The notes under the pieces were generated by a model that had not been told where the DNA came from, made no database searches, and was given only the letters and a program-made list of their open reading frames with translations. From Candidatus Gottesmanbacteria bacterium RIFCSPHIGHO2_02_FULL_39_11 (GTDB taxonomy: Bacteria; Patescibacteriota; Microgenomatia; 2-02-FULL-39-11), in NCBI GenBank assembly GCA_001779195.1, contig MFJL01000019.1:27192-91191 (forward strand): a stretch of DNA of 64,000 bases, given 5' to 3'. Position 1 is the stretch's first letter, and each line of letters starts with the position of its first letter. The position numbers were made by a program, and so were the translations under genes. Positions 2,124 through 51,661 of this stretch are shown piece after piece.

Positions 2124-3428
2124 ATGGAGCAACATCCGGTACCCAGAAATATCTCAGGATTCCAGTTTCGATTAATAGGGGATATGACCCTAAAACAGTT
2201 TGGGTATTTAGCCGGGGGAGCTCTAATCGGATATTTAATATACGCGGTTTTTCCGATTCCTCCTCTTTTTAAATATCCTCTTATTGCAGTCATTGTTTTA
2301 GGAGGAGTAGCATTGGCATTTCTGCCCATTCAGGACAGACCTTTGGATAAATGGCTTATTGCTTTTATCAAAAGCATAACAAGGCCTACTCAGTTTTTAT
2401 GGCAGAAATACGAAGAAGCTCCCGAGATTTTGACACGTCCCTATACGACCGCCCAACAACCGGTACAAGAAAAGCATGTTCAACTGCATCATGAAAGCAA
2501 CCTGAAGCTTAAAGCTTATCTTGCATCCCTTCCGCCAACTACACAACAGACGTATAATATTCACGAAAAACAGTATATTGATCAAACTCTTGCTCTTTTT
2601 GGTACTCCCGTTCCGATAATCCGAGTCCCTTCTCTTAATTCTTCAACGCCTAATCATCCTCACCAGGAGGAGAGCGTGAGACTTTCACAAGCACCTGCTC
2701 AAATTTTACCCAGTCAATCGATAAGAGTTGCCCCTCCGGTAATTCATCCGCCTCATATTCCGACGGTTATTCCAAGTCCTCCTGCGCAGCCGCCTCCCTC
2801 TATCCCGGTAACCTCATCTTCCCATCAAGCAACAGCTTCTGTTTTGGGAACGGTCAATAACTCAACCGATCCCAACACTGATGACAAGCTAAAACAGCTT
2901 CTTTCTGAAAAGGAAAATCTCGCACGGGAGCTTGAGATGCTTAAAAAGAAGATGGAGACCGAAAAAACAACCGTGGTTGTAAAGCCCCAATTTGCTCCGG
3001 ACATTGGGAATGAATCCACCGTCACAAAAGTTAAGGCTGAATCTGTTACTGATACCGTTGGAATACCGAGTCTTCCTCAAACTCCTAATATGGTTGTAGG
3101 TGTGGTTAAAGATCCAGGGAGGAAAATCCTGCCAAACATTATTATTACCATAAAAGATGCATTGGGTACCCCTGTCCGGGCACTTAAAACAAATAAGCTG
3201 GGTCAGTTTGCAATAGCCACTCCTCTTCAAAACGGAAATTACGTATTAGAATTTGAAGATCCCATGAAACGGTACATCTTTGAAAATGTACAAATTATTC
3301 TTAACGACACGCTTTTTATTCCGGTTGAGGTTTTAGCAAAAGGCCAAAGAGAAATTGTGCGTGAACAGCTTAATAAAGCAATATTTGGAGAATTAAATCC
3401 GGCACCTGCCCAAAACGGACTGATTTGA
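2124..3428 (+). CDS. PrgI-like (VirB3-like) T4SS membrane protein with a long C-terminal extension
   Basis: The N-terminal ~95 aa has the PrgI-family layout (FQFRLIGDMTLKQFGYLAGGALIGYL plus two TM helices). A Pro-rich linker, a coiled coil (KLKQLLSEKENLARELEMLKKKMETEK) and a C-terminal beta-sandwich-like domain follow. It lies directly upstream of VirB4. Confidence 0.55.
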   Translation: MEQHPVPRNISGFQFRLIGDMTLKQFGYLAGGALIGYLIYAVFPIPPLFKYPLIAVIVLGGVALAFLPIQDRPLDKWLIAFIKSITRPTQFLWQKYEEAPEILTRPYTTAQQPVQEKHVQLHHESNLKLKAYLASLPPTTQQTYNIHEKQYIDQTLALFGTPVPIIRVPSLNSSTPNHPHQEESVRLSQAPAQILPSQSIRVAPPVIHPPHIPTVIPSPPAQPPPSIPVTSSSHQATASVLGTVNNSTDPNTDDKLKQLLSEKENLARELEMLKKKMETEKTTVVVKPQFAPDIGNESTVTKVKAESVTDTVGIPSLPQTPNMVVGVVKDPGRKILPNIIITIKDALGTPVRALKTNKLGQFAIATPLQNGNYVLEFEDPMKRYIFENVQIILNDTLFIPVEVLAKGQREIVREQLNKAIFGELNPAPAQNGLI

Positions 3429-3458
3429 TTCTCATGTGAATGATTGAAAAGTAAATTG

Positions 3459-3491: not shown

Positions 3492-3496
3492 AAAGT

Positions 3497-4186
3497 ATGG
3501 CATCACCTATCGGAACACCTATTCGCGCATCTACTCAGGATTTTTTGGATATTCAAACTATTTTAGATGATATTATTGTGCTTCGAGACGGATCTTGTGC
3601 AATAGCAATTGAGACAACTGCCGTAAATTTCGGTCTTCTTTCTGAAGAAGAACAGGACGCTCTAATTTATGCATATGCGGCTTTTTTAAATTCTCTCTCT
3701 TTTCCTCTTCAGATTGTCATCCTTTCAAAACGCATGGATATTTCTCTTTATATTGAGAGAATTACACGGGAAGAAGAGCGGCAGGTCGATGAAACAGTAA
3801 GACAGCGGCTCAAAAGATATAAAGAATTTATTATGTCCATTGTCAAAGAAAATAGAGTTCTTGAGAAAAAATTTTATCTGGTTATTTCGTTTTCAGCAGT
3901 TGAACTGGGAGTAAAAGGCGCTTTTCAAACAAATAGTCAAAAGAAAAAATTTCAGTTTTCCATGGATTACGTTTTATCGCGTGCAAAAACATCCCTCCTT
4001 CCCAAACGGGATCATGTACTAAGACAAATCGGAAGAATAGGACTTAAGGGAAGGCAACTTACCACACAGGAATTGGTTGAAATATTCTATAATATTTATA
4101 ACCCTACGTTAACCGGAGAAAAATTGGGAGATGTCGCAGGGTACGAAACTGCAATGGTTACTGGACAAGGAAAAAAATCATCATGA
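3497..4186 (+). CDS. VirB4/TraE-family T4SS ATPase, N-terminal domain (separate ORF; likely frameshifted from the next ORF)
   Basis: FLDIQTILDDIIVLRDGSCAIAIETTAVNFGLLSEEEQDALIYAYAAFLNSLSFPLQIV matches the conserved VirB4 N-terminal region. It overlaps the next ORF by 4 nt, ending in GQGKKSS just after an A7 run. Confidence 0.6.
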   Translation: MASPIGTPIRASTQDFLDIQTILDDIIVLRDGSCAIAIETTAVNFGLLSEEEQDALIYAYAAFLNSLSFPLQIVILSKRMDISLYIERITREEERQVDETVRQRLKRYKEFIMSIVKENRVLEKKFYLVISFSAVELGVKGAFQTNSQKKKFQFSMDYVLSRAKTSLLPKRDHVLRQIGRIGLKGRQLTTQELVEIFYNIYNPTLTGEKLGDVAGYETAMVTGQGKKSS

Positions 4187-6099
4187 ATTTCTCTTTTACA
4201 CCTAAAAAACAAAAACAATCAATTACCCCGGGAGAAGTTTCTAAAGTTGCAATCTCACCTAAAAATCCCGTCCCTGTGCCTGCCGGTGGTACGTCTAAAC
4301 TTGGTAGGGCAGGGGCTATTTCTCCGCAACTGAGAACTGAGGTAAATCATTATGTAAAGGGAACGGTAAATGTAAGAGATATTATCGCTCCCTCTTATGT
4401 AGAGGTAGACTTTGACAATATACGGGTTAACAATACGTATTATCGGACTCTTTTTGTCTCCGGATACCCGAGATATGTCTCTGCTAACTGGCTTCATCCG
4501 GTTCTTTCATTTGACCGGTCTCTTTTTATATCCATGTATATTTATCCTACAGAATCAAAAGTTATTTTAGAGGATCTTAAACGGAAAATCGCGGAGATGG
4601 AAGCAACCATTCAGGTGGATATGAAACGGGGGAAAGTAGTTGATCCCTCAGTCCAAGTAGCACTCGATGATGCTCTGAGCCTTCAGGCACAGCTTGCCAA
4701 AGGCGCTGAAAGATTTTACCAGTTCGGCCTATACGTCACCATTCCCTCCGAGGCAATTGATGATCTTAACCGAATGAGTAAGGAGGTTGAAGCAACTTTA
4801 GGTTCCCTCCTTATTATTCCTAAACACGCAACTCTTTCTCAGGAGGAAGGATTTAAATCAACTCTTCCTATGGGACTGGATAAGCTGGATGTAACCCGCA
4901 ATATGGACACTACGTCTCTTGCTACAACTTTTCCCTTTACCACAGCTTCACTTACTCAAAATGAAGGGATTTTGTATGGAATAAATGAACATGACGGGTC
5001 CCTGGTAATCTTTGACCGGTTTAGCCTCGAGAATTCAAACTCGGTTGTATTTGGAAAATCAGGAGGAGGAAAAAGCTTTCTGGTAAAACTTGAAACTATG
5101 AGACATCTTATGTTTGGAACAGAGGTTTTTGTCATTGATCCGGAAGGGGAATACACAGAGCTTACCAAAGTTATAGGAGGAGAGCTCATCAACTTCTCTT
5201 TTAATTCTCCCATTAAAATAAACCCTTTTGATTTATCCGGAGTTTATATAGAAGGAGAGAATGAGTTAGGACTTAAAATCCTTTCTCTGCATGCTCTGAT
5301 GCGGGTTATTATGGGAGATATTACTCCGGGAGAAGATGCGATTTTGGATCGGGCCCTAGTATTAACCTACAAACAAAAGGGGATTACTCCGGATCCGGGA
5401 ACTCAAAAAAACGAACCTCCTCTTATTGAGGATTTATATAAAGTTCTTATGGGAATGGAAGAAGATCACGCCAAATCCCTTGCTGAAAGGCTTGAAAAAT
5501 TTGTGAGGGGAAGTTTGGCTGGAATTTTTAATCAAAAATCAAATTTGGATCTGAAAAATCCTCTTACGGTTTTTAATGTTAAGGAGTTGGAAGCTGAGCT
5601 TCGACCGATTGCCATGTTTATAATTCTGGATCATATCTGGACAAAAATAAAAAAAACGATTAAAAAACGAATCATGGTTGTGGATGAGGCATGGTACCTG
5701 ATGAAACATCCTGATTCCGCAACTTTTCTTTATGGAATTGCTAAACGCGCCCGCAAGTACTACCTGGGGGTCACAACCATTACTCAGGATGTCGAAGATT
5801 TTCTATCAACAGATTACGGAAAAGCCATCATCACCAACTCATCTCTTCAAATTTTATTAAAACAGTCGCCGGCTGCAATTGAAAAACTCGCCCAGGTTTT
5901 TTACCTATCAGGAGGAGAAAAGCATTTTCTTCTTTCTGCAAATGTGGGAGAGGGACTTTTTTTTGCCGGCTCATCCCATGCCGCAATTCAAATTATTGCC
6001 TCTCCTGAAGAGTATCATTTGGCAACCTCAAAGCCTCAGGACATGGAAGATAAACCTCTTCCCATTTCCCATACCCCCGGACCCTCTCCTGCAGTATAA
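4183..6099 (+). CDS. VirB4/TraE/PrgJ-family T4SS ATPase (ATPase domain)
   Basis: Walker A is FGKSGGGKSF, Walker B is IMVVDEAWYLM, and the VirB4 C-terminal motifs are present. Confidence 0.85.
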   Translation: MNFSFTPKKQKQSITPGEVSKVAISPKNPVPVPAGGTSKLGRAGAISPQLRTEVNHYVKGTVNVRDIIAPSYVEVDFDNIRVNNTYYRTLFVSGYPRYVSANWLHPVLSFDRSLFISMYIYPTESKVILEDLKRKIAEMEATIQVDMKRGKVVDPSVQVALDDALSLQAQLAKGAERFYQFGLYVTIPSEAIDDLNRMSKEVEATLGSLLIIPKHATLSQEEGFKSTLPMGLDKLDVTRNMDTTSLATTFPFTTASLTQNEGILYGINEHDGSLVIFDRFSLENSNSVVFGKSGGGKSFLVKLETMRHLMFGTEVFVIDPEGEYTELTKVIGGELINFSFNSPIKINPFDLSGVYIEGENELGLKILSLHALMRVIMGDITPGEDAILDRALVLTYKQKGITPDPGTQKNEPPLIEDLYKVLMGMEEDHAKSLAERLEKFVRGSLAGIFNQKSNLDLKNPLTVFNVKELEAELRPIAMFIILDHIWTKIKKTIKKRIMVVDEAWYLMKHPDSATFLYGIAKRARKYYLGVTTITQDVEDFLSTDYGKAIITNSSLQILLKQSPAAIEKLAQVFYLSGGEKHFLLSANVGEGLFFAGSSHAAIQIIASPEEYHLATSKPQDMEDKPLPISHTPGPSPAV

Positions 6100-6108
6100 T
6101 AAAAGGGT

Positions 6109-7674
6109 ATGAGCGCTGCCCACGGAAAACAACCTACAGAGTTAACACCGGAACAAGAAGAAGAACAAAAACAAAAAGAGCGTTTTGCTCCTGATCGAAT
6201 GGAACAGGACACAGAGTCTGTTTTCTCCCAATTTTTCACTTTCGCAGCAGCAATGGGCTGGGGAAAAATAAAAGGGGATAGAGAACAATTTGAATTATTT
6301 CAAGCCATTTCTAATACTCATCTAAGCGAAGTGATTCTTGATCTTTCAAACCCACAAAATATAAAGGACGCAAGAGCTCTCTATGCAACTGTTAAAAAAG
6401 AATTTGATAGACAAAATTTTGATCCTAAAACAAAAACATATAAAAAAGCCACTGCGTCCAGAGGTTCTCTTTGGGGAAAAGCAACCATCTCAACTGACAC
6501 CCTTACAAAAGCTGACCAGCAAATAACAGTGGGGGAACACTTTCACTCTCTGGTAAATTCTCATGAAACAAACACCCGTATTGACCAAGCAGTCTCTATA
6601 TATGGAATTAAAAATAGAGAAGAATTTGTATCCTCTTTAGCCAAACATCTGAAGGAAAATAGCGGTAATTTTGATGATGCCATTCATACTGTTGTAAGAC
6701 ATCAGACTGCTCTTGAGAAAACAGGAAAAAAGGATGGAAACTTAAATAAAGAACAAGATAATGCATTAAACTCCTCTTACGAAAAATTTTCCAAACAGGA
6801 ATTAAAAGATGAGGCACGACAAAAAGCGGTTGAATATGGTGAATCCATTAAACCTGAGGCTGAAGAGGTGATGGTTAAAATCAAAGCAGGCTTGGATCCA
6901 GATCAGCTTCAAACAGAACTGAATGCAATCGGAAAACCGGTTCAAGAACCCGAGCCTCCTCCGTCTCCTATACAACCACCTGCTTCTGGTTCTATCTCTC
7001 TGGAGGCTCTTGGTTCCGGACAAAACGCACCGCATCCGGAAATGGACGAGTTATATGGAGAAATGATGGGGGAGAGTCCTACGGTTGTTGTTCCCGCGGG
7101 AAGTCCTTCTCTTAAGGGAGCAGTAAATGCCATTAATAATCCTCAAACTCCGATTCCACATATGTCTTCTGTATCATCTCCAGTAGGATCAGTATCGGTT
7201 AAAGGATTAAAAGGTCTTTTGGGGAAAGCCGCCGGTCTTTTTTCAAAACTTAAATCATTAGCTTCAACTCTTTCAAATGCTACGCTAGCTATTCCCGGGG
7301 TAGGAGAAATAGTAAAAGGACTTCAAATTGCAAAAAAAGTTCTGGATCGTATTCCTATTATTGGACAAGCGGTTAATAATGCGATTAATAATGCTTTTAG
7401 CACTCTTCTTAAAGTGTTTGGATTGTCACTTGCAGCAATTTTTCTTTTTCTTCTGATTTTTATAACCAGTTTCAGCGATCCCTCTACTTTGTTCTCACCC
7501 ACACCATCTAATTTAGGTGCATCAAACCCTTCAAATCTTTCCTGGAGTACATTTGAAAAAGATTATTTACAGCTTGCAGAGAAAAAAGAAGAAAAAGATA
7601 TTTCCTGGATCGAATTTCAAAAACAGTTTCTTAGCTCCTCAAAAATCTATCTTTCAGAGACTTCTTCCCGCTAG
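6109..7674 (+). CDS. Hypothetical protein with an acidic N-terminus, a Pro-rich region and a C-terminal TM anchor (T4SS-associated by position)
   Basis: The long ORF is translationally adjacent to virB4. A PEPPPSPIQPP stretch and a single C-terminal helix (LSLAAIFLFLLIFITSF) are present, and no recognisable family was found. Confidence 0.4.
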   Translation: MSAAHGKQPTELTPEQEEEQKQKERFAPDRMEQDTESVFSQFFTFAAAMGWGKIKGDREQFELFQAISNTHLSEVILDLSNPQNIKDARALYATVKKEFDRQNFDPKTKTYKKATASRGSLWGKATISTDTLTKADQQITVGEHFHSLVNSHETNTRIDQAVSIYGIKNREEFVSSLAKHLKENSGNFDDAIHTVVRHQTALEKTGKKDGNLNKEQDNALNSSYEKFSKQELKDEARQKAVEYGESIKPEAEEVMVKIKAGLDPDQLQTELNAIGKPVQEPEPPPSPIQPPASGSISLEALGSGQNAPHPEMDELYGEMMGESPTVVVPAGSPSLKGAVNAINNPQTPIPHMSSVSSPVGSVSVKGLKGLLGKAAGLFSKLKSLASTLSNATLAIPGVGEIVKGLQIAKKVLDRIPIIGQAVNNAINNAFSTLLKVFGLSLAAIFLFLLIFITSFSDPSTLFSPTPSNLGASNPSNLSWSTFEKDYLQLAEKKEEKDISWIEFQKQFLSSSKIYLSETSSR

Positions 7675-38116: not shown

Positions 38117-39748
38117 ATGGCAGATCATGAACCAAAAGAAGGAAAAGGACTGAAAGGGCTTCTAAAAAAGATTTTACAGGGAGGTGTTCCTCCCGAGGCT
38201 CTCTATACAGAACCTCCTCCCCCGCAGGAGGCTCGTTCCAATTCTTCCCGTCATAATAACAATAATGAGAACGAAGCACCTCGCGATGTAGATCAGTTGT
38301 GGGACATGATGGCTAGTGCTCCTGCTAAAGCACGCGAATTTATTCCGGATGTGCCCTCTAAAAAAGCTCTTGAGATTCCTGAGATGAAAAGACTGGCTAT
38401 TGACCTTATCGTAAACGTTGACTCTGATTTATATTCAAATCCCCAGTGGCTTAAAAACCGGAAATCAGATATTGAAAGAATTCAAAGCGGGTATGCCTCT
38501 ACTCTGGATCTGAAAGATCAAGGCATATTAGTTGAGATGAAGAACGCAATTATCCAGAAAGAGAGAAAAATTAAAAATATAGACGAAAGATTAAAAGAAA
38601 ACAAAGACGAGATAGAAGCGGTTAAAAAGGGAGAGCCCAAAAATACAGCCGAAGAACTGAAAAAAACAATTAGAGAAGTTACCGATCTTGATGAGATAAA
38701 AAATGATGTAAAAATTAGAGATATAGTTTCTGAATTGGAAGAATATGTCAATAAAGATGACGATGGTCGACACGAGGATGATAAAAAGGTCGGGGGAGAA
38801 CATCCCCCCAAGGGCATTTATCTGGAGTATGCGTATCGAAAGCTTCAGGATCAAATAAAAGAAGAGTATAAGAAATTAAATCAGGAAAAACCGGAAATAT
38901 ATAAGCCTCAACGCCAGGAATTAGCAAAAAAAGTAGAAGCAGTTGAACGGCTTCAAAAAAAGATGGCAAAACACTGGGGAAGCATGACCGGCAAACTGGA
39001 TAATGAAAATTATCGGGAGGTAGGTGACTATGAGATGCATAAAGATACTCTAAGGCGCGATCAAAACTACCGCGACTACTATTTTTATAAAACACTTAAG
39101 CCTATTTTATTTAATGATCGCCTGGAAGCACATAGAGATTTAACCAGTCTCTCACTTATTCAGAGGATGGAGGATTTTATGGAAATTATAAGCGAGGCAA
39201 AAGATACAGGTGAAAATCCGAATGAGAACTACGGTAGGAGCTTGGTAGCTCACTATACCCGTCTGAAAAATATGATTTTTCAGTCTAACGATACGGATTA
39301 TTATGCCGCGCATCCGGCACAGGGAATTGATGAGTTTATCCAGTCCACCGCATTTTTTACAAACGGACTCATCGATTTTGCTTTTCAAAACCCGATGGTA
39401 GTTTTAGCAAAGCGCATGTATGAGTCTGTTCTTCTTGAGATCCGGGAAAACCACCAGGGATATATTCCCAGAAGATATTTGGAATGGAATGAAAGCAGTA
39501 GAGATATCCCGATTGATCGGATGGTAAGAGAGCGTATTCTCCAGGCAATTAAAAACGGACAGGTATACAACCATCCTATTGATCCTGCAACCGGACAGGA
39601 CCAGGTTGATATATATCAAAGGCTTAGGTCCAGTAAGGGAGGAGTATTAGGCGAAAAAGAAAAACTTAAGATGGATGATTTAACCGGCGGACTTGCCCCG
39701 GGAAGTCCGGGATGGAGACGGGACTTAGGAGACCTCCAAATTGCCTAA
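38117..39748 (+). CDS. Hypothetical coiled-coil-rich protein (higher GC)
   Basis: The 543-aa ORF has no TM helix or Walker motifs. It is K/E-rich and is co-oriented and adjacent to the next large gene. Confidence 0.4.
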   Translation: MADHEPKEGKGLKGLLKKILQGGVPPEALYTEPPPPQEARSNSSRHNNNNENEAPRDVDQLWDMMASAPAKAREFIPDVPSKKALEIPEMKRLAIDLIVNVDSDLYSNPQWLKNRKSDIERIQSGYASTLDLKDQGILVEMKNAIIQKERKIKNIDERLKENKDEIEAVKKGEPKNTAEELKKTIREVTDLDEIKNDVKIRDIVSELEEYVNKDDDGRHEDDKKVGGEHPPKGIYLEYAYRKLQDQIKEEYKKLNQEKPEIYKPQRQELAKKVEAVERLQKKMAKHWGSMTGKLDNENYREVGDYEMHKDTLRRDQNYRDYYFYKTLKPILFNDRLEAHRDLTSLSLIQRMEDFMEIISEAKDTGENPNENYGRSLVAHYTRLKNMIFQSNDTDYYAAHPAQGIDEFIQSTAFFTNGLIDFAFQNPMVVLAKRMYESVLLEIRENHQGYIPRRYLEWNESSRDIPIDRMVRERILQAIKNGQVYNHPIDPATGQDQVDIYQRLRSSKGGVLGEKEKLKMDDLTGGLAPGSPGWRRDLGDLQIA

Positions 39749-39778
39749 GCTCTAAAGCAGGCAAAAGCTCTGGGACTT

Positions 39779-42031
39779 GTGGATATGCGGTTTTTGGAAA
39801 TTCTGGCAAAATCCCGGGGAAGCGGATCCAACATGAAGATAAAGAATAATAACGACCTGCACTCGTTCAATATGACGGGGCTTGCTAGTGTCCCCTATGA
39901 AGCAGTCGTGCAGTATCTGGAACCGGTTATTTATAAATACAGCCGGTTTAAGATGGGAGACCGGAAATTTCACGCGTTTTTCAACTTTATGATTCAGGAG
40001 AAGCAGAGCTTTGGGTATAAGCAAATCAGAGAGATTATACAAATGCATGAGGCGGGAGACCAAAAAGGGCTGGAAAAAAAGTATGGAAAAGAGATTGCTA
40101 CCCGGCTTATTTCCCAGGACAACCCATTTCTTTTTTCAAGCATGTGGGGAACGATGACGGGATGGAGAGCTTCCATGTCCACAACCGGTTGGGATGACTG
40201 GAGAAAGGAAAGAATGTCAACGGCCAACCGTCTTACCGGGGTGGGCGATAGGTATATTCTACAGGCAGGATCAGAACATGGAGGAGGAGAACACGGAGGA
40301 CATTTTGATTTTGATGAGGATGAAAAAGATTTACATGCCCACGGATCAACGAGAAATAAGAGAGGGTATGCCTATGAAAAAGTAAAAGAATATTTTCTGT
40401 ATGAATTTGGAGGTATGAGGGATTTTGTCCAGAACAAAAAAATCGATTTAAAAAATGAAATGAAAAGTTCGGGAGATGTCAGGCTTTCTGAGATTGCAAA
40501 AAATCCTGTTGAATTTGAAAAATATTGGAGACAAATTGGAATAAAAAGACATGAAAGTGAGATTAAGGAAAAATCAAAAGAGGAAAGAAGAAAAAATTTT
40601 CATGGAAATGAAATCGAACTTATTATGCAGACAGAGCGGGCATATAAGGCTCGCGTCTGGGCACAGGCTGTCATGAGGTCTCCTCTTATTGTGGCCCGTG
40701 AGTGGGGAAAAGAGAATACGTTAGAATCCAAGGAATTCGAATACCTGGGACAGGGAGCTCTCCGGAGAAAAATTCTAAGAGAAATTCTTCATTTTGATCT
40801 TCCGGAAATGGGACCTACCCAGGAACCTACCAAACAGCAGGAAGAGCAGTTGAACCGTATTACCGTACTTGAAGGACAGCTTGCCAGTATTTCTGAAAAA
40901 TCCAGACGGGAGAACCGGGATCTTCAGGATGAGGATTTTGAGGATATTGTAGATCCCGACCAGCGGGTACTTGCTCTAAGGTATTGGCATAAAGTGCAAA
41001 AGGCAGTTCTGGGAGCTGAGGGAAACCATGCCGGACAAGCCTGGTATGACGCGCTTGGAATACAGAGTGCGGATTTACCGGATGACAATGAATTAAGAAC
41101 GTATATATTAAATCCGGAGAACGGATTTTTAAAACCGGACGGAAAAGTTGATTTATCCGATGAACGTCTGGAAGGGCTTAGGTCTCACAAAATTGATTTT
41201 AACAAAATATCCCAGAATATTAATATTCATGCAGACGGGAAAGATTATGCAGATATTTTCCATGGAGGACATCTGCCTCCCGGAGTAAATCATGATGCAA
41301 TGCTTACCGGGCGCATGATTGACAAAGACTGGAGATATTTTTTCTCTACAGAGGATATGGGATGGGAATATTTAAATATGGTTGCATTAGGAGAAAGAAA
41401 TCCGGTCCGGCGTGCCGGAGATCTGGCCTCTCATGTGCAATTTTCACAAGGACTGGATAAGCTTATTGCCCCGGCAGGAGGTGCCATAGGACCCCGCTTA
41501 AATGAAGAAGAATTTCATAAGGCACTTACAGAAATGTTTACCGCAATTGAGGGAGATGATAGAGATGTCGCCTATGATACCGTTCAGAGGATTTTCTATA
41601 ACTCCATGCTTATGTACCGGAAGATGACTCCGAGCTATTATAAAATACCTCTTATCGGGTGGGGAGCTGCAAAAATAAAAGGTTTTCTGCGGCCCATGTC
41701 TGTGATGCAGATACTGTCAGAGCCATATGGGCAGATGCACGCGGACGCGTTTGGAGCTCAGGACATACTAAAACAAATTCACATGGGAGAGGCAGCAGGG
41801 TATATTCTTCCATCTGATATAAATCCCTTAACCGGAGAAAGGGATCATTGGACAGAATGGAATGCCCATACTCTTGAGTCTCGCTTAGGCGCAGGTAAAG
41901 AGTCTCTTACGTATGATGTTGAAAATTATGTTCTGTTTCTGATGTTTATGCTTCTTCTTTGGCAATCTCTGAAGCAATCAAACGCGGATAACGCGGAAGG
42001 TGGTGGAGGTGGAGGCCCCCCTGGTCACTAG
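39779..42031 (+). CDS. Hypothetical 750-aa protein with a C-terminal TM helix and a poly-Gly tail (higher GC)
   Basis: It has a His/Gly cluster HGGGEHGGHFDFDEDEKDLHAHG, a C-terminus YVLFLMFMLLLWQSL...AEGGGGGGPPGH, and no family assignment. Confidence 0.4.
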   Translation: MDMRFLEILAKSRGSGSNMKIKNNNDLHSFNMTGLASVPYEAVVQYLEPVIYKYSRFKMGDRKFHAFFNFMIQEKQSFGYKQIREIIQMHEAGDQKGLEKKYGKEIATRLISQDNPFLFSSMWGTMTGWRASMSTTGWDDWRKERMSTANRLTGVGDRYILQAGSEHGGGEHGGHFDFDEDEKDLHAHGSTRNKRGYAYEKVKEYFLYEFGGMRDFVQNKKIDLKNEMKSSGDVRLSEIAKNPVEFEKYWRQIGIKRHESEIKEKSKEERRKNFHGNEIELIMQTERAYKARVWAQAVMRSPLIVAREWGKENTLESKEFEYLGQGALRRKILREILHFDLPEMGPTQEPTKQQEEQLNRITVLEGQLASISEKSRRENRDLQDEDFEDIVDPDQRVLALRYWHKVQKAVLGAEGNHAGQAWYDALGIQSADLPDDNELRTYILNPENGFLKPDGKVDLSDERLEGLRSHKIDFNKISQNINIHADGKDYADIFHGGHLPPGVNHDAMLTGRMIDKDWRYFFSTEDMGWEYLNMVALGERNPVRRAGDLASHVQFSQGLDKLIAPAGGAIGPRLNEEEFHKALTEMFTAIEGDDRDVAYDTVQRIFYNSMLMYRKMTPSYYKIPLIGWGAAKIKGFLRPMSVMQILSEPYGQMHADAFGAQDILKQIHMGEAAGYILPSDINPLTGERDHWTEWNAHTLESRLGAGKESLTYDVENYVLFLMFMLLLWQSLKQSNADNAEGGGGGGPPGH

Positions 42032-42033
42032 GT

Positions 42034-43467
42034 TTAATGCTTCTGTTCTCCTCCTCCAAAAAATTTCTTCAAAGGTCCATGCTGGGTAGCCTGCTGGAAA
42101 TAATACTGAGTCTGCAAAGCTGACATTCCGGTTTGAACCGTCCCGGTAACCGGAGCAAATATGGTTCCCAGAGAGAAAGGTAAGGTTGGCTGAGGGTTGA
42201 AAGCTTTCTTAGCAGCGGCAACCAGATTGGGTGCTAAAAAGACTACACCGATTGCTAAAATATTATGGAAAATTCCCCCGGCTCCGACTCCCACAAAAGG
42301 AGGGGCCCAGGTGCTGACAGACGCTTGATTCTCTGAGCCTAGGAATGCTGCAAAGATCAATATTCCGGCCGTTGCCGGAAACACGACTAAATTGGCTAAA
42401 ATATTTTGTATCCATCCTCCAAACGCGGATTTACCGGGTATCGCCTCCTGAAGAAGAATAAACGGACCGAGGATAACGGAAATTAGTAGCTGGATATAGG
42501 AGTTTAGCAGAAGAAAGAAAAGTCTGACTAATGTAAAAAGAAACCCCCCAAAAATAAAAAGAAGTATGACTCCTCCTCCAGTGGCAATAACAGGTAGTGT
42601 TGCGACATGTGTAACTATTGCCGCAATTATTCCTACAACTCCCGCGCCGGTTGTAAGCTCTATTACTCCCAGATTATTGACAACTCCGGCCCAAAATACT
42701 CCGTTAATAAGTCCTCCCAGATCAGCATTCAGGTAAGCAGATTGAAGATTGGTTACGTCTGCTCCTCCGATTCTTCCCCCTGCTCCTGTGACCAGTAAGT
42801 TTATGAGAATTGCCATTGAAAAATACATAATATCAATCAAAAATCCGGCAATTGCATAGGAGAAGGTGATAAGAAGAAGGGCAACAACTATTTTAGGAAG
42901 CGCTGCCTGAATGGTGATTACCGTTTTAGGATCTATTTTCATCCTAAAAATAATCATAAATCCGATGATAAGCATGACGATAATAATAATGGAATACGCG
43001 ATATTGCGGGTCACTTTCCAGAAGGGAAGAAAAGTGGAAAGTGCTGAAAATCCTATCCCTTGAGCATATGCAGGCTTTACAAACCCGGCGTTATTTAGGG
43101 TATCGTGAACATAAGCAATTCCTGAGGCCGCGGGATTTGAGTAAACTTCCCCAATTAAGTTTGTGACATTTCCAAGAGCAGTTAATTTAGATTCACAGTT
43201 AGTTATATCTGTGCATCCGATTTTGTTTGTTAAATTATAAATTAAGGCATCGATTGTAAAACTTCCTGCCGAAAGGCCGCTTATACACGGCTTACCATTA
43301 TTATCGGCGGCACAGGCTTCTTCTTTTTGTTTCATATCATTTAGGCTGTTAACGTTCTGTTTATAGAAAACATCCTGAGGGTTTGCTGCGTTTACAGTTG
43401 AAGTGAATGAGACAAAGAGAGTAAAAAAGATAAATACAATAAAAAATAGGGGCAGTAGACGTTGCAT
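42034..43467 (-). CDS. Polytopic membrane protein, VirB6/TrbL-like (putative T4SS inner-membrane channel component)
   Basis: A signal peptide is followed by a Cys-containing extracytoplasmic domain and then at least 6 Gly/Ala-rich TM helices. It is immediately followed by the pilin-like gene array. Confidence 0.45.
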   Translation of the reverse strand: MQRLLPLFFIVFIFFTLFVSFTSTVNAANPQDVFYKQNVNSLNDMKQKEEACAADNNGKPCISGLSAGSFTIDALIYNLTNKIGCTDITNCESKLTALGNVTNLIGEVYSNPAASGIAYVHDTLNNAGFVKPAYAQGIGFSALSTFLPFWKVTRNIAYSIIIIVMLIIGFMIIFRMKIDPKTVITIQAALPKIVVALLLITFSYAIAGFLIDIMYFSMAILINLLVTGAGGRIGGADVTNLQSAYLNADLGGLINGVFWAGVVNNLGVIELTTGAGVVGIIAAIVTHVATLPVIATGGGVILLFIFGGFLFTLVRLFFLLLNSYIQLLISVILGPFILLQEAIPGKSAFGGWIQNILANLVVFPATAGILIFAAFLGSENQASVSTWAPPFVGVGAGGIFHNILAIGVVFLAPNLVAAAKKAFNPQPTLPFSLGTIFAPVTGTVQTGMSALQTQYYFQQATQHGPLKKFFGGGEQKH

Positions 43468-43522
43468 AATAGATATCTTTATTATTCAGACTTATACAGA
43501 AGAAGTCAAGAAGATATGTCTC

Positions 43523-43939
43523 TTAAGTTTGGACAGCCGAGGGAATGTTAAAGTTGAAAATGTTCGGAACTCCCAGGAAGTTAGCAACTAAATTGAATAT
43601 TGCGTAAGCTGCAAAGACCAACAGAAGTCCCAAAAGTGCAGCCTGGATTTTATTCCGTGCCGACTCAATATTTCCTTTGTCTCCTCCTGAGGTGATCCAC
43701 TGAAATCCTCCCCAGAGAAGATAGACAAAGGCGATAAGTCCCGCTAAAAAGAGGAATAAGGAAAGAAGGCTTCCAATAAGTTTTCCTAAATCTAGGATTC
43801 TTAGTTCCGGAGGTGGAGGGATATTAATTGATCCCGAGGGGAAGGGTGTGTTGGATTGAGCGTGAACTCCTGGGACAACAATTCCGGACGTAACTGCAAT
43901 TGTTAATGTTGTGATAGCAGAGGACAAAGTTTTCTTCAT
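43523..43939 (-). CDS. T4SS pilin-like protein (VirB2/TrbC-like), paralog 1
   Basis: A signal peptide precedes a TM helix, the motif FQWITSGGDKGNIESARNKIQAALLGL and a second TM helix. Confidence 0.5.
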   Translation of the reverse strand: MKKTLSSAITTLTIAVTSGIVVPGVHAQSNTPFPSGSINIPPPPELRILDLGKLIGSLLSLFLFLAGLIAFVYLLWGGFQWITSGGDKGNIESARNKIQAALLGLLLVFAAYAIFNLVANFLGVPNIFNFNIPSAVQT

Positions 43940-44014
43940 ATATAAACAGATTAGGAGGATTTTTTTCTCTTGTCAAGAGATAAAAAAGTACTGAGGTAAA
44001 ACTTGCCCCAGTCT

Positions 44015-44341
44015 TCACTGAGTCGGGATTCTGAAAATAGTAATGGGAACCCCTGTGAAATACTCAATCAGTTTAAATATAAGGTACGCCCCAGCCATCA
44101 GAGCAATTCCGATAATCGCGTATGTCAGCGTCGATTTTGCAGATGCTACAGCTTTGGGGTCTCCTCCGGCTGTCAGGAACTTAAACCCTCCGACTAGAAA
44201 CATCACAAATAGAGCCAAAGCTGCAAGACTTACGGCAACCACCAAAATATTTGAGAATACAATCTCAAGGCATTTAATAGTCGGGACTTCTACCTCTCCA
44301 ACCTTTAACAAACATCCCGGAACATCATTCCAATTTTTCAT
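44015..44341 (-). CDS. T4SS pilin-like protein, paralog 2
   Basis: FKFLTAGGDPKAVASAKSTLTYAIIGI lies between two TM helices. Confidence 0.5.
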   Translation of the reverse strand: MKNWNDVPGCLLKVGEVEVPTIKCLEIVFSNILVVAVSLAALALFVMFLVGGFKFLTAGGDPKAVASAKSTLTYAIIGIALMAGAYLIFKLIEYFTGVPITIFRIPTQ

Positions 44342-44347
44342 AATGGT

Positions 44348-44689
44348 TTAAAAGAGTTTAGGAAGATTCAGATTTACTCCATCTCCGCTTGTAAGTCCCA
44401 GAAATTTTAAAAGGACAAGATATATTGACCACGAAGCAACCAGAATGATAAGCCCGATGATGGACTGCAAGATCCGTTCCCTGGCCTCCATCACTTTCCC
44501 TTTATCTCCTCCTGAGGTGATCCACTCCAGTCCTCCCCGAAGAAGCTGAAACAATGTCCAGATTGCTCCTAAGAATAAAATTATTCCCACCAGAGCTGAA
44601 AAAAACTTTCCAAAAGCAGCTGCGGAGCTTGCTTGGTCACAGTTAAGCCCGATTATAGCTGTATTACAAACAGGAGTTATGTTTGGCAT
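44348..44689 (-). CDS. T4SS pilin-like protein, paralog 3
   Basis: LEWITSGGDKGKVMEARERILQSIIGL lies between two TM helices. Confidence 0.5.
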   Translation of the reverse strand: MPNITPVCNTAIIGLNCDQASSAAAFGKFFSALVGIILFLGAIWTLFQLLRGGLEWITSGGDKGKVMEARERILQSIIGLIILVASWSIYLVLLKFLGLTSGDGVNLNLPKLF

Positions 44690-44693
44690 AGCA

Positions 44694-45182
44694 TCAGATT
44701 ACTAATTTTATTATAGCTTCTCCGGGATTAAAAATATTAAGCCCGAAAATATTTCCAACCAGTCCTACAAAGATATAGGAGACAACCACAATAAGAAGCC
44801 CAATCACCGCGTGAAGCATGCGCAGGCGCGCGATTTCCAAAAGCCCTTTATCAGCTCCGGCTGAGATCCACTGAAATCCTCCTATTATAAATTGTATTAA
44901 AAACCACAATCCTGCAATGATCGTTATAAATGAGATAATTCCGCTGACAAGCTGATTTAAGGAGTTTGCAACCTGAGTATTTTGATCAGTAGTATTGTTA
45001 GAATTTAAGATTCCGCAAATAATGTTTCCAATTGGGCCCATCCCTCCTCCGCATCCTATACCTTGGGTATTTGGTCCTGCTGGAGTTTGTGCAAAAGCTT
45101 TTGGAATCCCAATCAAATGAACTAAGCCGACAAAAAAAATAATAATTAAAGCAGAAATAATAATATTTAAGTATTTACTCAT
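44694..45182 (-). CDS. T4SS pilin-like protein, paralog 4
   Basis: FQWISAGADKGLLEIARLRMLHAVIGL lies between two TM helices, with an N-terminal signal peptide. Confidence 0.5.
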   Translation of the reverse strand: MSKYLNIIISALIIIFFVGLVHLIGIPKAFAQTPAGPNTQGIGCGGGMGPIGNIICGILNSNNTTDQNTQVANSLNQLVSGIISFITIIAGLWFLIQFIIGGFQWISAGADKGLLEIARLRMLHAVIGLLIVVVSYIFVGLVGNIFGLNIFNPGEAIIKLVI

Positions 45183-45619
45183 GGTGTTGGTGTAATAGTA
45201 GGATTAAGAATTGCGGTAACATTTCCATACAGAACAAGCCCGATAATTGCAGCTACCAGAAATGATGCCACAATGATAATAAGTCCTACCAGGGACTGCC
45301 AGATACGTGTCCAGGCTGATGCAACCTTTTTGCTATCCCCGGAAGCGCTCATAAAATCAAATCCGGCTATAATAAAATTTAAAAAAGTCCACAAGCCGGC
45401 AACGATAAAAATAATCCGAAGAACCAGGTTCATCAGAATGACAACTGCGGTAAGTTGTCCCGTATCACTAATTGGGGGTGTTGAGAAAAGTCCGCCGAAT
45501 CCGGTGGGATTGATTGTCCCAATCGGATCTCCCTGAGCGTAGACAGGAGTAGAAAGCGAAAGGGAGAAAGAGAGAAGAAGCGAAAAAAAAATAATTGTTA
45601 TAGATGACAAACGATTCAT
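45179..45619 (-). CDS. T4SS pilin-like protein, paralog 5
   Basis: FDFMSASGDSKKVASAWTRIWQSLVGL, with an N-terminal signal peptide ending in the AQG cleavage context. Confidence 0.5.
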   Translation of the reverse strand: MNRLSSITIIFFSLLLSFSLSLSTPVYAQGDPIGTINPTGFGGLFSTPPISDTGQLTAVVILMNLVLRIIFIVAGLWTFLNFIIAGFDFMSASGDSKKVASAWTRIWQSLVGLIIIVASFLVAAIIGLVLYGNVTAILNPTITPTP

Positions 45620-45969
45620 CCGAATACTCCTCCAAAAGGTTTTCCTGTAAGGTTATTTATTATCTGAAGTATCCAGAGGGAGGCAAACATAATAATGAGT
45701 CCTATCACCGCATATGTCAGAATCATTTTTCTGCTCTCCGATGCATGAGGGTCTCCTCCGGCATTTGAGATCACTCCAAATCCCGCAATAACTACGATAA
45801 AAAAGCACAAAATGCCGCCGGCAAGTAAAAATAGGGGAACAAAAAAAGACACAAATCCCCCGATTGAACCAAAAGCCGGATTTTTCGCGATAGGAAAAAT
45901 TTTTCCGATATCTACTCCACCTGTAGGCATTCTAAATTTAGAATAAGGGGGAACAGGGAGGTTTGTCAA
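45616..45969 (-). CDS. T4SS pilin-like protein, paralog 6
   Basis: FGVISNAGGDPHASESRKMILTYAVIGL. The start may be at the internal Met (MPTGG). Confidence 0.45.
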   Translation of the reverse strand: MTNLPVPPYSKFRMPTGGVDIGKIFPIAKNPAFGSIGGFVSFFVPLFLLAGGILCFFIVVIAGFGVISNAGGDPHASESRKMILTYAVIGLIIMFASLWILQIINNLTGKPFGGVFG

Positions 45970-45998
45970 ATAAGAGAAAGAGCCGTATACTTCTAGGT

Positions 45999-46553
45999 AT
46001 GAAACCAGGCAGATGTGAAGAAAAAGAGTTGGTAGAAAATATACTGAAAGGAGAAGAGTCCTCCCTGCGAAAGTTTTATGACACTTACTATCGTCCTATT
46101 CTTTCCTTTATCAGAAAGAGGATAAACAGTGAAAATGATGTAGAGGAAGTTTTGCAGGATACCCTCTTAGGAGCGCTTGATTCATTCCGGGATTTCTCTT
46201 TCCGCTGTTCCATATTTACTTTTTTATGCAGTATCGCAAGTCATAAAGTGATTGACTATTACAGAAGAAAGAAAATAAAAAATATCGTTTTTTCTAAAAT
46301 TCCGGATGTGGAGGAAATACTGGGAACACTTTTAGGTCCTGAAGAAATTTTAGACCATGAAATGCTTAAAAGTAAGATAAAAAAAACTCTTTTATCTCTT
46401 TCTCCCATGTATCAGAAAATTATAGACTTAAAATATATTCAAGGCTATACCGTTTCTGAGATTGCCGAAAAATTATCGTTATCATTTAAAAGCTGCGAAA
46501 GCCATCTGTTTCGTGCTCGGAAAGCATTTGTCGTGGCTTTTGAGAAAAAGTAA
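45999..46553 (+). CDS. RNA polymerase sigma-70 factor, ECF subfamily
   Basis: Region 2 (VEEVLQDTLLGALDSFRDF) and region 4 HTH (GYTVSEIAEKLSLSFKSCESHLFRARKAF) are present. The start is taken at the Met of MKPGRCEEKE to avoid overlap with the divergent pilin gene. Confidence 0.78.
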   Translation: MKPGRCEEKELVENILKGEESSLRKFYDTYYRPILSFIRKRINSENDVEEVLQDTLLGALDSFRDFSFRCSIFTFLCSIASHKVIDYYRRKKIKNIVFSKIPDVEEILGTLLGPEEILDHEMLKSKIKKTLLSLSPMYQKIIDLKYIQGYTVSEIAEKLSLSFKSCESHLFRARKAFVVAFEKK

Positions 46554-46555
46554 CT

Positions 46556-46795
46556 GTGAAAAGTAACTCAGACCTTCTTTATCTTAAATTAGTGAAAAGG
46601 ATGGAGGAGATAAGTGTTGTTTCTCCTCAAGAACTGGGGCCTTTTACCTTATTTTATAAGGTTATTGCCTCGCAGTTAAAAGTTCATCCCTGGAAGAGTG
46701 CAGGAGTTGCCGCTCTTATTGCGACTCTACTTCTGTATCTGGCTCTAGGAGGAGCTTTTATCAAAATTGCCTCACTACTCCAGTACGGATTCTGA
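46556..46795 (+). CDS. Hypothetical small membrane protein (possible anti-sigma factor)
   Basis: The 79-aa ORF immediately follows the ECF sigma gene with a 2-nt gap and has one TM helix. The function is suggested only by position. Confidence 0.3.
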   Translation: MKSNSDLLYLKLVKRMEEISVVSPQELGPFTLFYKVIASQLKVHPWKSAGVAALIATLLLYLALGGAFIKIASLLQYGF

Positions 46796-47815: not shown

Positions 47816-48973
47816 ATGTCATTGAGAGACTTTAAGACGATAGAAGAAAGAAGAAAATATATTGAAGATGAAACTCACAACAAATTCTCTTCGATATCTT
47901 TATTTCCGGATAAGTTAAAGGAAGCATCGCAGACCAATTGTGAAAATATGATTGGGGCGGTATCTATTCCTTTAGGAATTGCAGGACCGTTAAAAATCAG
48001 AGATCAGGGATCAGGGGTCAGGGATCAGGAAGTCTATGTTCCTTTAGCAACCACAGAAGGAGCATTGGTAGCTTCCGTAAATCGGGGATGCAAGGCAATT
48101 TCAGAAAGCGGGGGAGCATATACGGTTGTTGAAAATTCAGGAATGACACGGGGAGCTTCATTTAAAACACAAAGTCTTAAGCAGAGTTTAGAGCTTCGTG
48201 AATTTATTAATATCCATAATGAGGATATAAAAAAAATTGCATCATCTACTTCTTTTCATCTTCAGTTTAAATCTGTATTTACTAAAACATTAGGAAGAAG
48301 TGTTTTTGTGAGATTTTCTTTTGATTGTTCTGAGGCAATGGGAATGAATATGGCGACAATTGCTGTCTCTAAAATTTGTAACTATTTAGAAAAAGAAACT
48401 CAAGCTAAAACCATTTCGGTTGCCTCAAACTTTGATGTAGATAAAAAACCTGCTTGGCTAAATGTGATTTTAGGAAGAGGAAGGCAGGTATGGGCTGAGG
48501 TTGAGATTTCAGATAAAACCATCGTATCGGTATTAAAAACAACCGCACAGAAAATGCACGAATTAAATATTCAAAAAAATCTTTTAGGTTCATCTCTTTC
48601 AGGGTCCCTGGGGTTTAATGCTCATTTTGCCAACATTGTTTCTGCGTTTTTTATCGCAACCGGTCAGGATCCGGCTCATGTAACTGAAGGAAGTTTAGGC
48701 TTCACAACGACTGATCTTACAACCGCTGGAATTGCGGTAAGTATTTACATGCCCAATGTAAATGTAGGGACAGTAGGAGGGGGAACTAAGCTTGCCTGCC
48801 AAAAAGAAGCACTAAGTATATTAGGCATCACAGACGGCTCTTGTAAGGGAAGCGCTGATCTTTTAGCTTCTTATTTGGGAGCAGCAGTTCTGGGAGGAGA
48901 AATATCCCTTCTTGCCTCCCTTGCAGAGGGAAGTCTTGCATCAACTCATAAAAAATTAGGAAGAGGAAAATAA
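47816..48973 (+). CDS. Hydroxymethylglutaryl-CoA reductase (class I-like)
   Basis: ENMIGAVSIPLGIAGPLKI and LATTEGALVASVNRGCKA are diagnostic HMGR motifs. Confidence 0.9.
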   Translation: MSLRDFKTIEERRKYIEDETHNKFSSISLFPDKLKEASQTNCENMIGAVSIPLGIAGPLKIRDQGSGVRDQEVYVPLATTEGALVASVNRGCKAISESGGAYTVVENSGMTRGASFKTQSLKQSLELREFINIHNEDIKKIASSTSFHLQFKSVFTKTLGRSVFVRFSFDCSEAMGMNMATIAVSKICNYLEKETQAKTISVASNFDVDKKPAWLNVILGRGRQVWAEVEISDKTIVSVLKTTAQKMHELNIQKNLLGSSLSGSLGFNAHFANIVSAFFIATGQDPAHVTEGSLGFTTTDLTTAGIAVSIYMPNVNVGTVGGGTKLACQKEALSILGITDGSCKGSADLLASYLGAAVLGGEISLLASLAEGSLASTHKKLGRGK

Positions 48974-50013: not shown

Positions 50014-50018
50014 AGTTT

Positions 50019-51161: not shown

Positions 51162-51162
51162 C

Positions 51163-51259
51163 GTCATCCCGGGCTTGACCCGGGATCCATTCCTTATGGT
51201 GTGTGGATTCCCGCCTTCCCTAAAAAGCGAACTTTTCAGGGTAAACGCGGGAATGACAA
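51163..51259. repeat. Compound hairpin repeat element downstream of the thiolase
   Basis: gtcatcccgggcttgacccgggatccat followed by tggattcccgcc...gcgggaatgacaaa. The first hairpin is identical to the one at 7732-7761. Confidence 0.6.
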
Positions 51260-51268
51260 ACAACTCTT

Positions 51269-51571
51269 ATGATTAGCCCGGTAAAAATTTGGAGAAACCA
51301 GAAAAAAATAGAAGCACTTCTTGGGAAAGTCGGAGAAATTGTATCCTGGACAAAGGTTTATGTTCCCCCCGCCGGATTTATTTCTCAAGCCCCTTATATT
51401 GTTGCGGTTGTAAAGCTTAAGGAGGGAAAAAATATTATCTGCCAGTATGTAGACTGGGGGGAAAGAGAACTTGTTATTGGACAAAAAGTAAAAACCATAT
51501 TAAGACGTACCCAGGAAAGCGATACGGATGGGGTAATTCCCTATGGAGTTAAAGTAAAACCTGTTAATTAG
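51269..51571 (+). CDS. DUF35 OB-fold/Zn-ribbon protein (scaffold of the thiolase/HMG-CoA synthase complex)
   Basis: The ~100-aa protein shows the OB-fold pattern YIVAVVKLKEGKNIICQYVDWGERELVIGQKV. Its position after the thiolase matches archaeal operons. Confidence 0.65.
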   Translation: MISPVKIWRNQKKIEALLGKVGEIVSWTKVYVPPAGFISQAPYIVAVVKLKEGKNIICQYVDWGERELVIGQKVKTILRRTQESDTDGVIPYGVKVKPVN

Positions 51572-51651
51572 GTGTCAGGTGCTAGGTTTTAGGTGTTAGA
51601 TTATTATTCAACGTTTTTCTTATAACCTATAACCTTAAACCTATAACCTTA
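51570..51651. repeat. Inverted pair of heptamer arrays (AGGTGTC/AGGTGCT/AGGTTTT ... TAACCTA/TAAACCT)
   Basis: aggtgtcaggtgctaggttttaggtgttag ... ataacctataaccttaaacctataacctta. Confidence 0.5.
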
Positions 51652-51661
51652 TTTATTGTTT

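Follow-up and report, generated by a model that had tools for sequence, protein, structure and literature searches.

Six tandem pilin-like genes and a VirB6-like neighbour in a Gottesmanbacteria chromosome: a probable type IV secretion module

The Patescibacteria account for a large share of uncultured bacterial diversity and seem to live attached to host cells. In one of them, six related small genes stand in a row before a gene for a polytopic membrane protein of 477 amino acids (aa), and the question that this locus raises is what the seven genes encode and whether the six copies are parts of one structure or interchangeable variants. The locus lies in a stretch of 64,000 nucleotides (nt) from Candidatus Gottesmanbacteria bacterium RIFCSPHIGHO2_02_FULL_39_11 (contig MFJL01000019.1, positions 27,192 to 91,191; hereafter, the window), which is chromosomal DNA of a groundwater member of the Microgenomatia within the Patescibacteria, or candidate phyla radiation (CPR); contigs of the same sequence originate from aquifer metagenomes, PRJNA268031 among them. 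Because dnaN (7836-8945), dnaA (9122-10519), rnpA and yidC are all inside the window, it represents the replication origin region. In the public record, all seven genes are annotated as "hypothetical protein", including those of the 477-aa protein (identical to GenBank OGG15691.1, A3D77_01535) and of the 138-aa small protein (identical to OGG15692.1, A3D77_01540). Here we report the gene family, topology features, fold match, gene order and conservation of these genes, and we consider it probable that the seven (42034-45930) are the pilin-plus-platform module of a Patescibacteria-type type IV secretion system (T4SS), a derivative of monoderm MPF-FATA conjugation systems.

As the initial annotation described, six consecutive minus-strand open reading frames (ORFs) for pilin-like proteins are followed by the ORF of the 477-aa protein (Table 1). 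The intergenic gaps from pilin gene 1 through gene 6 to the 477-aa gene are −4, −4, 4, 6, 75 and 55 nt, and the hairpins in the 75-nt and 55-nt gaps, considered as candidate terminators, are not more stable than those of shuffled sequence (z = −0.2 and −0.6, respectively). The longest ORF of gene 1 (45616-45969) encodes 117 aa from a TTG, but the ATG at 45930 (104 aa) is the likelier start: it was chosen by gene callers on identical contigs, and the alignment of gene 1 orthologues together with a conserved promoter puts the TTG at 45969 inside a −35 box. As this TTG belongs to the TTGACA −35 element of the conserved promoter, the array ends at 45930 rather than at 45969.

Each small protein had been thought to carry a signal peptide or first transmembrane (TM) helix and a second TM helix. 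Hydropathy analysis shows two strong hydrophobic segments in all six, whereas an N-terminal signal-like segment is present in only three (the proteins of 146, 162 and 138 aa), with AxA-type sites VYA/Q, AFA/Q and VHA/Q; genes 1, 4 and 5 encode no signal peptide. Similarly, the central motif proposed for all copies, when taken as a literal regular expression, matches two of the six, whereas a slightly relaxed form, G-[FLI]-x-[WFV]-[ILM]-[TS]-x(1,2)-[GAS]-[GAS]-D-x(5,6)-[AS]-[RKW], is present in every one. The loop between the two helices holds 2-4 Lys/Arg residues. A GC-x11-12-C motif in the N-terminal external segment of gene 3 is kept in all orthologues, and gene 5 has a conserved Cys pair near its N-terminus. 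The Cys pairs in the N-terminal tails of these two paralogue groups fit an external N-terminus and, with the charged loop, would fit a topology in which both ends are outside and the loop is inside. Orthologues of pilin 2 at four loci (L010, L019, L020 and L024) have a lipobox-like L-A-A-C or V-F-A-C before a conserved D-P-I-G, and some of them, read from putative start codons, may be lipid-anchored; pilin 2 of the window differs from these in having an AxA signal-peptidase-I site.

Table 1. Coordinates (window numbering, nt) and features of the pilin array, the VirB6-like gene, the ATPase module and adjacent elements
Feature	Position	Strand	Description
Pilin-like gene 1	45616..45930	-	104 aa from ATG 45930; two TM helices, no signal peptide; PF18895 30.2 bits
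Pilin-like gene 2	45179..45619	-	146 aa; signal peptide VYA/QG and two TM helices; PF18895 21.4 bits (below cut-off)
Pilin-like gene 3	44694..45182	-	162 aa; signal peptide AFA/QT and two TM helices; PF18895 22.2 bits (below cut-off)
Pilin-like gene 4	44348..44689	-	113 aa; two TM helices, no signal peptide; PF18895 28.4 bits
Pilin-like gene 5	44015..44341	-	108 aa; "core" pilin without signal peptide, most conserved copy; PF18895 37.3 bits
Pilin-like gene 6	43523..43939	-	138 aa; "core" pilin with signal peptide VHA/QS; PF18895 33.3 bits
VirB6-like polytopic membrane protein	42034..43467	-	477 aa; signal/anchor segment, external helical domain, TM helices
PrgI-family (VirB3-like) protein	2124..3428	+	434 aa; PF12666 PrgI 39.7 bits
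TrsD-like protein	3497..4186	+	229 aa; resembles VirB4 N-terminus
VirB4-like ATPase	4183..6099	+	638 aa; P-loop_TraG 104.5 bits, AAA_10 51.6 bits
521-aa protein	6109..7674	+	directly after VirB4; no Pfam/NCBIfam match
Bidirectional sigma-70-type promoter region	45940..45991	.	common −35 TTTGACAAA; predicted by consensus match and conservation
ECF-type sigma factor	45999..46553	+	184 aa from ATG; divergent from array; Sigma70_ECF 46.7 bits
Small protein	46556..46795	+	64-79 aa, C-terminal TM segment, co-oriented with sigma gene; no Pfam match
Lys/Glu-rich C-terminally anchored protein	38117..42031	+	1304 aa intact; convergent on VirB6-like gene; no Pfam match

The Pfam family T4SS_pilin (PF18895; gathering cut-off 26.6 bits) matches all six small proteins, four of them above the cut-off (Table 1). 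A local hidden Markov model (HMM) built from the six pilins gave E = 7 × 10−31 for gene 2 and E = 3 × 10−33 for gene 3 and found no other member among the ORFs of the window. Since all six proteins match one Pfam family and the window has no other such ORF, their mutual resemblance goes beyond chance. The AlphaFold (AF2) model of the 138-aa copy, made from 36 orthologues, consists of a signal helix, a disordered stretch and a helix-loop-helix hairpin (helices 51-83 and 88-121) with a pLDDT of about 95. The PF18895 scores and the confidently modelled hairpin thus bear out the view that the small proteins are T4SS pilin-like. Membership in TrbC/VirB2 in the strict sense (PF04956; cut-off 27.9 bits) did not hold up: only the 138-aa copy matches, at 15.9 bits (E = 0.015), below the cut-off, and the other five give no match. 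Five of the six match the NCBIfam family of Mbov_0395 pilin-like proteins (NF045849; 29, 18.1, 20, 18.5 and 10.9 bits) and the sixth does not; scores below the cut-off of 40 bits indicate proteins that, by sequence, are related to this family without being members of it. A PDB sequence search with the profile of the 138-aa orthologues matched no solved pilin sequence.

In the 477-aa protein, which carries Gly-rich loops, an external helical domain (~110 aa, 4 Cys) precedes about 6-7 TM helices. Its AlphaFold model is all-helical (pLDDT 77.9, pTM 0.63). In a Foldseek search with this model, four TrwI/VirB6 chains came out on top (probability 0.93-0.99, E = 0.07-0.17), and the best matches in two independent structure searches were TrwI and DotA, both of them T4SS proteins. 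Like VirB6/TrwI of the R388 stalk (PDB 7o3v) and DotA of the Legionella Dot/Icm system (PDB 9ngy), the protein is polytopic and helical, with an external N-terminal helical part; unlike them, it has no match to a TrbL/VirB6 HMM and no identified VirB5 partner, and its sequence identity to them is 11-17%. Given that the Foldseek scores are moderate, we took gene context as a second line of evidence. The family of the 477-aa protein is large (3,433 clusters at 50% identity with E ≤ 10−3) and has neither a Pfam nor an NCBIfam model, and its named homologues are all "hypothetical" proteins of Gottesmanbacteria or Microgenomates. In a profile-profile alignment (hhalign) with a Bacillota TrbL-like family (5 sequences), it is collinear over 348 columns (E = 4 × 10−4), and the two families have a GP-x6-A-x-P-x7-W motif in common. 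The protein thus combines a VirB6-type fold and at least five TM helices with a position beside other T4SS genes. The initial proposal of a VirB6-like protein is upheld by the fold and by conserved gene order, though by no sequence model, and "VirB6-like" is a well supported working assignment rather than proven homology.

To place the array in its genomic context, we scanned species-representative genomes and found a homologue of the 477-aa protein at 33 loci. At 31 of these, between 2 and 10 pilin-like ORFs lie directly upstream of this homologue on the same strand; the remaining two loci (L007 and L014) contain almost no sequence upstream of it. In a Woesebacteria locus (L032), a Saccharibacterium (L038) and several other Patescibacteria, the same strand runs on into PrgI-like, TrsD-like and VirB4 homologues. 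In nine distant loci, a PrgI homologue comes after the 477-aa homologue without a change of strand, and eight of these continue to a TrsD-like gene and VirB4. Eight related loci thus have the whole set on one strand, from the array and the 477-aa homologue through PrgI and the TrsD-like gene to VirB4, and in every one of the eight that reach VirB4 the TrsD-like gene stands between PrgI and VirB4. The Gottesmanbacteria cluster is split: the PrgI-TrsD-VirB4 module of the window lies at 2124-6099, 36 kb from the array. Its TrsD-like protein matches NCBIfam TrsD/TraD (E = 4 × 10−8) and the N-terminal region of VirB4 (E = 2 × 10−9), both below the cut-off, and most of the annotated plasmid matches of its VirB4, at 29-37% identity, come from Bacillota and Actinomycetota and are named either "VirB4-like conjugal transfer ATPase, CD1110 family" or DUF87 protein. 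A VirB4 with TrsD and PrgI/VirB3 partners, encoded on the chromosome near dnaA and dnaN, is what characterizes the Patescibacteria-type T4SS, and no relaxase or type IV coupling protein (T4CP) families turned up among the scanned window ORFs of at least 100 aa. The PrgI/VirB3-like protein is of unusual length: its PrgI domain takes up residues 5-90, and around residue 350 there is a weak CarboxypepD_reg-like domain, so that an external extension is suggested.

Among plasmid sequences, the window VirB4 has its best match (37% identity) on the megaplasmid NZ_CP062975 of Pontibacillus sp. ALD_SL1 (L040, 351362-361354), where two PF18895 pilins, a 779-aa polytopic protein, a PrgI/TraL-like protein, a 274-aa protein, VirB4 and a peptidoglycan hydrolase are encoded in this order. 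The 779-aa protein matches PF04610 TrbL/VirB6 (E = 2 × 10−4), and a homologue of it carries PF19590 TrbL_3. This cluster resembles the genes of the window and its relatives in the order pilin, TrbL-like, PrgI, intervening gene, VirB4, and includes a "Mbov_0395 family pilin-like conjugal transfer protein"; it differs in its location on a Bacillota megaplasmid, in having only two pilins and a 779-aa polytopic protein, and in the hydrolase after VirB4. Pilin-bearing T4SSs of monoderm bacteria are therefore not restricted to the Patescibacteria. The Pontibacillus cluster adjoins flagellar genes and lies on a replicon typed as non-mobilizable.

Several observations weigh against the assignment of the seven genes to a T4SS. 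To our knowledge, T4SS-specific methods have yet to show a pilus in any Patescibacterium. Two of the pilin copies, genes 3 and 2, fall below the PF18895 cut-off (E = 1.5 × 10−4 and 2.7 × 10−4, respectively), and the Foldseek search with the 138-aa model was non-specific, returning generic hairpins (ion-channel fragments, CnrX), with the sole pilus, an archaeal conjugation pilus, in 12th place (E = 2.7). The 477-aa protein has no match at E ≤ 1 to VirB6/TrbL (PF04610, PF19590) and no NCBIfam match, a PDB sequence search with a 51-sequence profile of its family gave no meaningful match, and hhalign gives the match to the TrbL-like family a low probability, 34% when the extended alignment is used and 6% when alignment A2 is. 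A Pfam scan of eight distant homologues of the 477-aa protein, one of them Saccharibacterial, yielded no TrbL match, so that the transitive sequence route to VirB6 failed. Finally, because the ATPase module is 36 kb away from the array, that the two function together in this genome is inferred from the relatives.

Some of these results could also be accommodated if the small proteins were unrelated membrane proteins (holin-like, immunity or transporter-accessory) and the 477-aa protein an unrelated permease. The non-specific hairpin fold search would agree with such a view, as would the weak Pfam matches of the pilins to many unrelated membrane families, which are all at E > 0.001, and the KEGG label "ABC-2 permease-like" on large Saccharibacterial counterparts. 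We nevertheless regard it as extremely unlikely, given the four copies above the Pfam cut-off, the strict linkage of the array to a protein of VirB6-like fold and, in relatives, to PrgI-TrsD-VirB4 on one strand, the same gene order in a Bacillota T4SS cluster, and the T4SS identity of both top structural matches of the 477-aa protein.

If the seven genes do belong to a T4SS, the six small proteins would be VirB2-like pilins of family PF18895, inserted in the cytoplasmic membrane as helical hairpins with their ends facing outwards and the conserved, positively charged G-G-D-x6-A-R loop facing inwards. Three of them would first lose a Sec signal peptide. The VirB4 ATPase, whose gene lies beside dnaA at a distance of 36 kb, together with those of PrgI/VirB3 and TrsD, would then extract the pilins from the membrane, and these would be assembled on a platform of the 477-aa VirB6-like protein. 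This extraction and assembly, as well as an external filament and a transported cargo, are inferred. Small hairpin proteins, some with signal peptides, encoded along with VirB6, VirB3 and VirB4 homologues are common to the window and to the VirB2/TrbC/TraA pilins (PF04956) of the T-pilus, the F-pilus and R388 (TrwL). The differences from these diderm systems are PF04956 scores below the cut-off, the lack of a PDB sequence match, a monoderm host, and six paralogues (three without signal peptide) vs. one major pilin plus VirB5.

Alternatively, the hairpin proteins might stay in the membrane and cell-wall zone as parts of a channel or stalk, with no extended filament. The monoderm MPF-FATA systems, which include the closest relatives of the window VirB4 (PMC12102498), are generally without pili (PMC10633639, PMC12857230), no VirB5-like tip protein or VirB1 was found beside the array, and three copies are without a cleavable signal peptide. 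We consider a channel without a filament unlikely, as the family similarity is to pilins (PF18895 and, more weakly, TrbC/VirB2 and Mbov_0395) and six distinct subunits exceed the needs of a simple channel. In established pilus structures, the loop of VirB2-type pilins lines the lumen of the filament. A conserved loop combined with variable termini, as found here, would be the pattern expected of a VirB2-type filament.

The six copies had initially been taken to suggest a variable pilus or surface filament, possibly for antigenic or host-range variation. Under this hypothesis, they would be alternative pilins that vary a surface filament to escape immune-like recognition or switch the host range, with fast turnover by duplication, loss and gene conversion. 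The paralogues are indeed strongly diverged (26-39% pairwise identity), copy number ranges from 2 to 10 among lineages, the N- and C-terminal tails, which would be the exposed parts, are the most variable, and variation has been raised by analogy with the VirB2 paralogues of Bartonella and Anaplasma (PMC12102498). Comparison with other genomes shows that genes 1-4 of the window match best the genes in positions 1-4 of other arrays that have six to eight genes (36-56% identical; 43-56% for the positional orthologues of gene 2, and 39-50% for those of gene 4). Every window copy has a same-position orthologue in at least 10 other genomes, at about 40-67% identity, closer than any paralogue. Gene 5 (108 aa) has its orthologue at the end of each of the other arrays, two-gene arrays included, with 52-67% identity within Gottesmanbacteria and less in two distant arrays (L025 and L032), and gene 6 (138 aa) is orthologous to the penultimate gene of other arrays. 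The two-gene arrays keep exactly these two core pilins, which were found in every array checked. The sole rearrangement is a swap of the core genes in the lineage of the window, where the 108-aa gene precedes the 138-aa gene (43523-44341, compared with L008-L027).

Further comparisons argue against variation in the same direction. The pilins diverge no faster than their 477-aa neighbour, which is 41-51% identical in the same genomes, and the Cys pairs and signal peptides specific to individual paralogues are conserved. DNA similarity between the copies is restricted to 38-50 nt at the motif, so that there are no conversion tracts, and no substitutions were found in the seven genes in five other metagenome contigs, from different samples, that cover the array partly or wholly. 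A single conserved promoter precedes the whole array, whose genes are packed tightly like an operon, and nothing points to silent copies. Thus, a variation cassette appears quite improbable, and the proposal of a variable filament is not sustained; the pattern fits old, individually constrained subunits, not a fast-changing cassette. Because the paralogues, two core and four accessory, are old and individually conserved, they are likelier to be specialised subunits of one structure than interchangeable variants. That the six genes are pseudogenised duplicates was ruled out separately: all are intact and have conserved orthologues, and the population contigs contain no variant.

VirB2-type structures are otherwise homopolymers with a VirB5 tip. 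A heteromeric filament or stalk of specialised subunits, comparable to major and minor pilins, would, if true, be an unusual VirB2-type architecture. Tentatively, the 477-aa protein would be the VirB6 that sequence profiles miss in Microgenomatia and the six paralogues would form one such heteromeric filament or stalk, a combined proposal that we rate somewhat short of even.

Arrays of this type were described in 2023 and 2025. The essential genes of Southlakia epibionticum ML1 include six for PF18895 pilins and one that is TrbL/VirB6-like (Wang et al. 2023, PMC10633639); the T4SS genes listed there are SEML1_0014-0019 for the pilins, 0011 and 0013 for two large polytopic VirB6-like proteins, 0010 for PrgI and 0008 for VirB4. 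The window resembles ML1 in its six tandem, diverged PF18895 pilins, its polytopic VirB6-like protein and the order PrgI, intervening gene, VirB4, as well as in the chromosomal location near dnaA and dnaN and in the lack of a relaxase or coupling protein among the scanned window ORFs. In contrast to the single cluster of ML1, the pilin/VirB6-like module of the window is 36 kb from the ATPase module, and the VirB6-like proteins of ML1 have about 1000 aa with large hydrophilic domains, vs. 477 aa in the window. Essentiality of the array has been demonstrated in ML1 only. Quinonero-Coronel et al. 2025 (PMC12102498) reported 441 VirB2 arrays in 383 Patescibacteria assemblies, with 2-11 genes per array and 25% identity on average; these arrays are commonest in Microgenomatia and Saccharimonadia, virB4 is near dnaA/dnaN/rnpA, and VirB6, searched for within ±20 genes of virB4, was "scarce" in Microgenomatia, probably through divergence. 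A 2025 review (PMC12857230) makes the same points. The window agrees with that survey in the kind of array, the phylum, the class (its tables place Gottesmanbacteria in Microgenomatia), the range of identities and the position of virB4 by dnaA/dnaN/rnpA.

As arrays of both studies are already published, the locus is a further example of a described kind: the pilin and VirB6-like array is real and mostly ordinary. Our results go slightly beyond the two papers in three modest respects, namely a candidate VirB6-like family, positional orthology in a fixed order with a two-gene core, and a conserved promoter. The first of these is a family without a Pfam model beside the array, which we propose as the VirB6-like component; the second indicates a fixed set of paralogues, where PMC12102498 had suggested possible host-range versatility. 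The pilin/platform module stays an ordered unit in Gottesmanbacteria even when separated from the ATPase. These findings help to annotate seven "hypothetical" genes and narrow the hypotheses on multiple pilins, and they reveal no new kind of system. The T4SS with its pilin array is among the few machines shown to be essential for the host-attached lifestyle, so far in one Saccharibacterium.

The 68-nt spacer between pilin gene 1 and the divergent sigma factor gene contains the two best-scoring promoter-like sites of the region, placed back to back on one −35 element, with the −10 box TATTCT facing the pilins and TATACT facing the sigma gene. The TTTGACAAA block and both −10 blocks are kept in 10 Gottesmanbacteria loci (alignment with L010-L012, L016, L018-L020, L022 and L023). 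The common −35 element TTTGACAAA is near-palindromic. Because the two promoters overlap, transcription in one direction could compete with that in the other for RNA polymerase. Only about 9 nt separate the −10 box towards the pilins from the ATG, so that the transcript may have almost no leader. A TTGACT-17-AATAAT site precedes the 477-aa gene.

The divergent gene encodes an extracytoplasmic function (ECF) sigma factor, as initially annotated: besides Sigma70_ECF, it matches r2 (39.8 bits) and r4_2 (43.9 bits) and has regions 2 and 4 only, as do group 4 sigma-70 factors. It is a conserved neighbour of arrays of 6-8 genes, and this adjacency is its sole tie to the array; mevalonate genes are also conserved there. 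The promoter facing the array, judged from its sequence, looks sigma-70-type rather than ECF-type. The small TM protein next to the sigma gene recurs in 9 loci and is, by its position, a possible anti-sigma factor. Further along, a complete mevalonate-pathway block (47816-55207) encodes HMG-CoA reductase, an HMG-CoA synthase-like protein, a thiolase with an OB-fold partner, two GHMP kinases and diphosphomevalonate decarboxylase, followed by undecaprenyl-diphosphate synthase; the HMG-CoA reductase is a conserved neighbour of the sigma/pilin region in Gottesmanbacteria.

On the other side of the array, a convergent gene for a Lys/Glu-rich protein is interrupted in the window by a TAA at 39746-39748 (A at 39747), which splits the 1304-aa protein into ORFs of 555 and 750 aa. 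Four other metagenome contigs have TAC (Tyr) at this site, a single-base difference that leaves the gene intact, and the stop could reflect either an assembly error or a nonsense allele that is rare. A protein of ~1300 aa is the convergent neighbour in 14 Gottesmanbacteria loci, two-pilin ones included (L007-L010, L012, L013, L015-L017, L019, L020, L023, L026 and L027), and in a fifteenth (L022) it is encoded about 7 kb downstream. It may belong to the T4SS, to which conserved adjacency is its sole link. Likewise, the 521-aa protein after VirB4 is, by position, a possible further T4SS component.

Elsewhere in the window, a Peptidase_C39-like protein fused to TPR repeats is encoded at 61555-62640, with no adjacent ABC transporter among the scanned ORFs. 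Toxin-antitoxin-type genes at 15744-16229, 17111-17494, 29046-30412 and 56509-56838 encode two PIN-domain proteins, an AbiEii nucleotidyltransferase toxin with an upstream 199-aa partner, and a HepT-like RNase.

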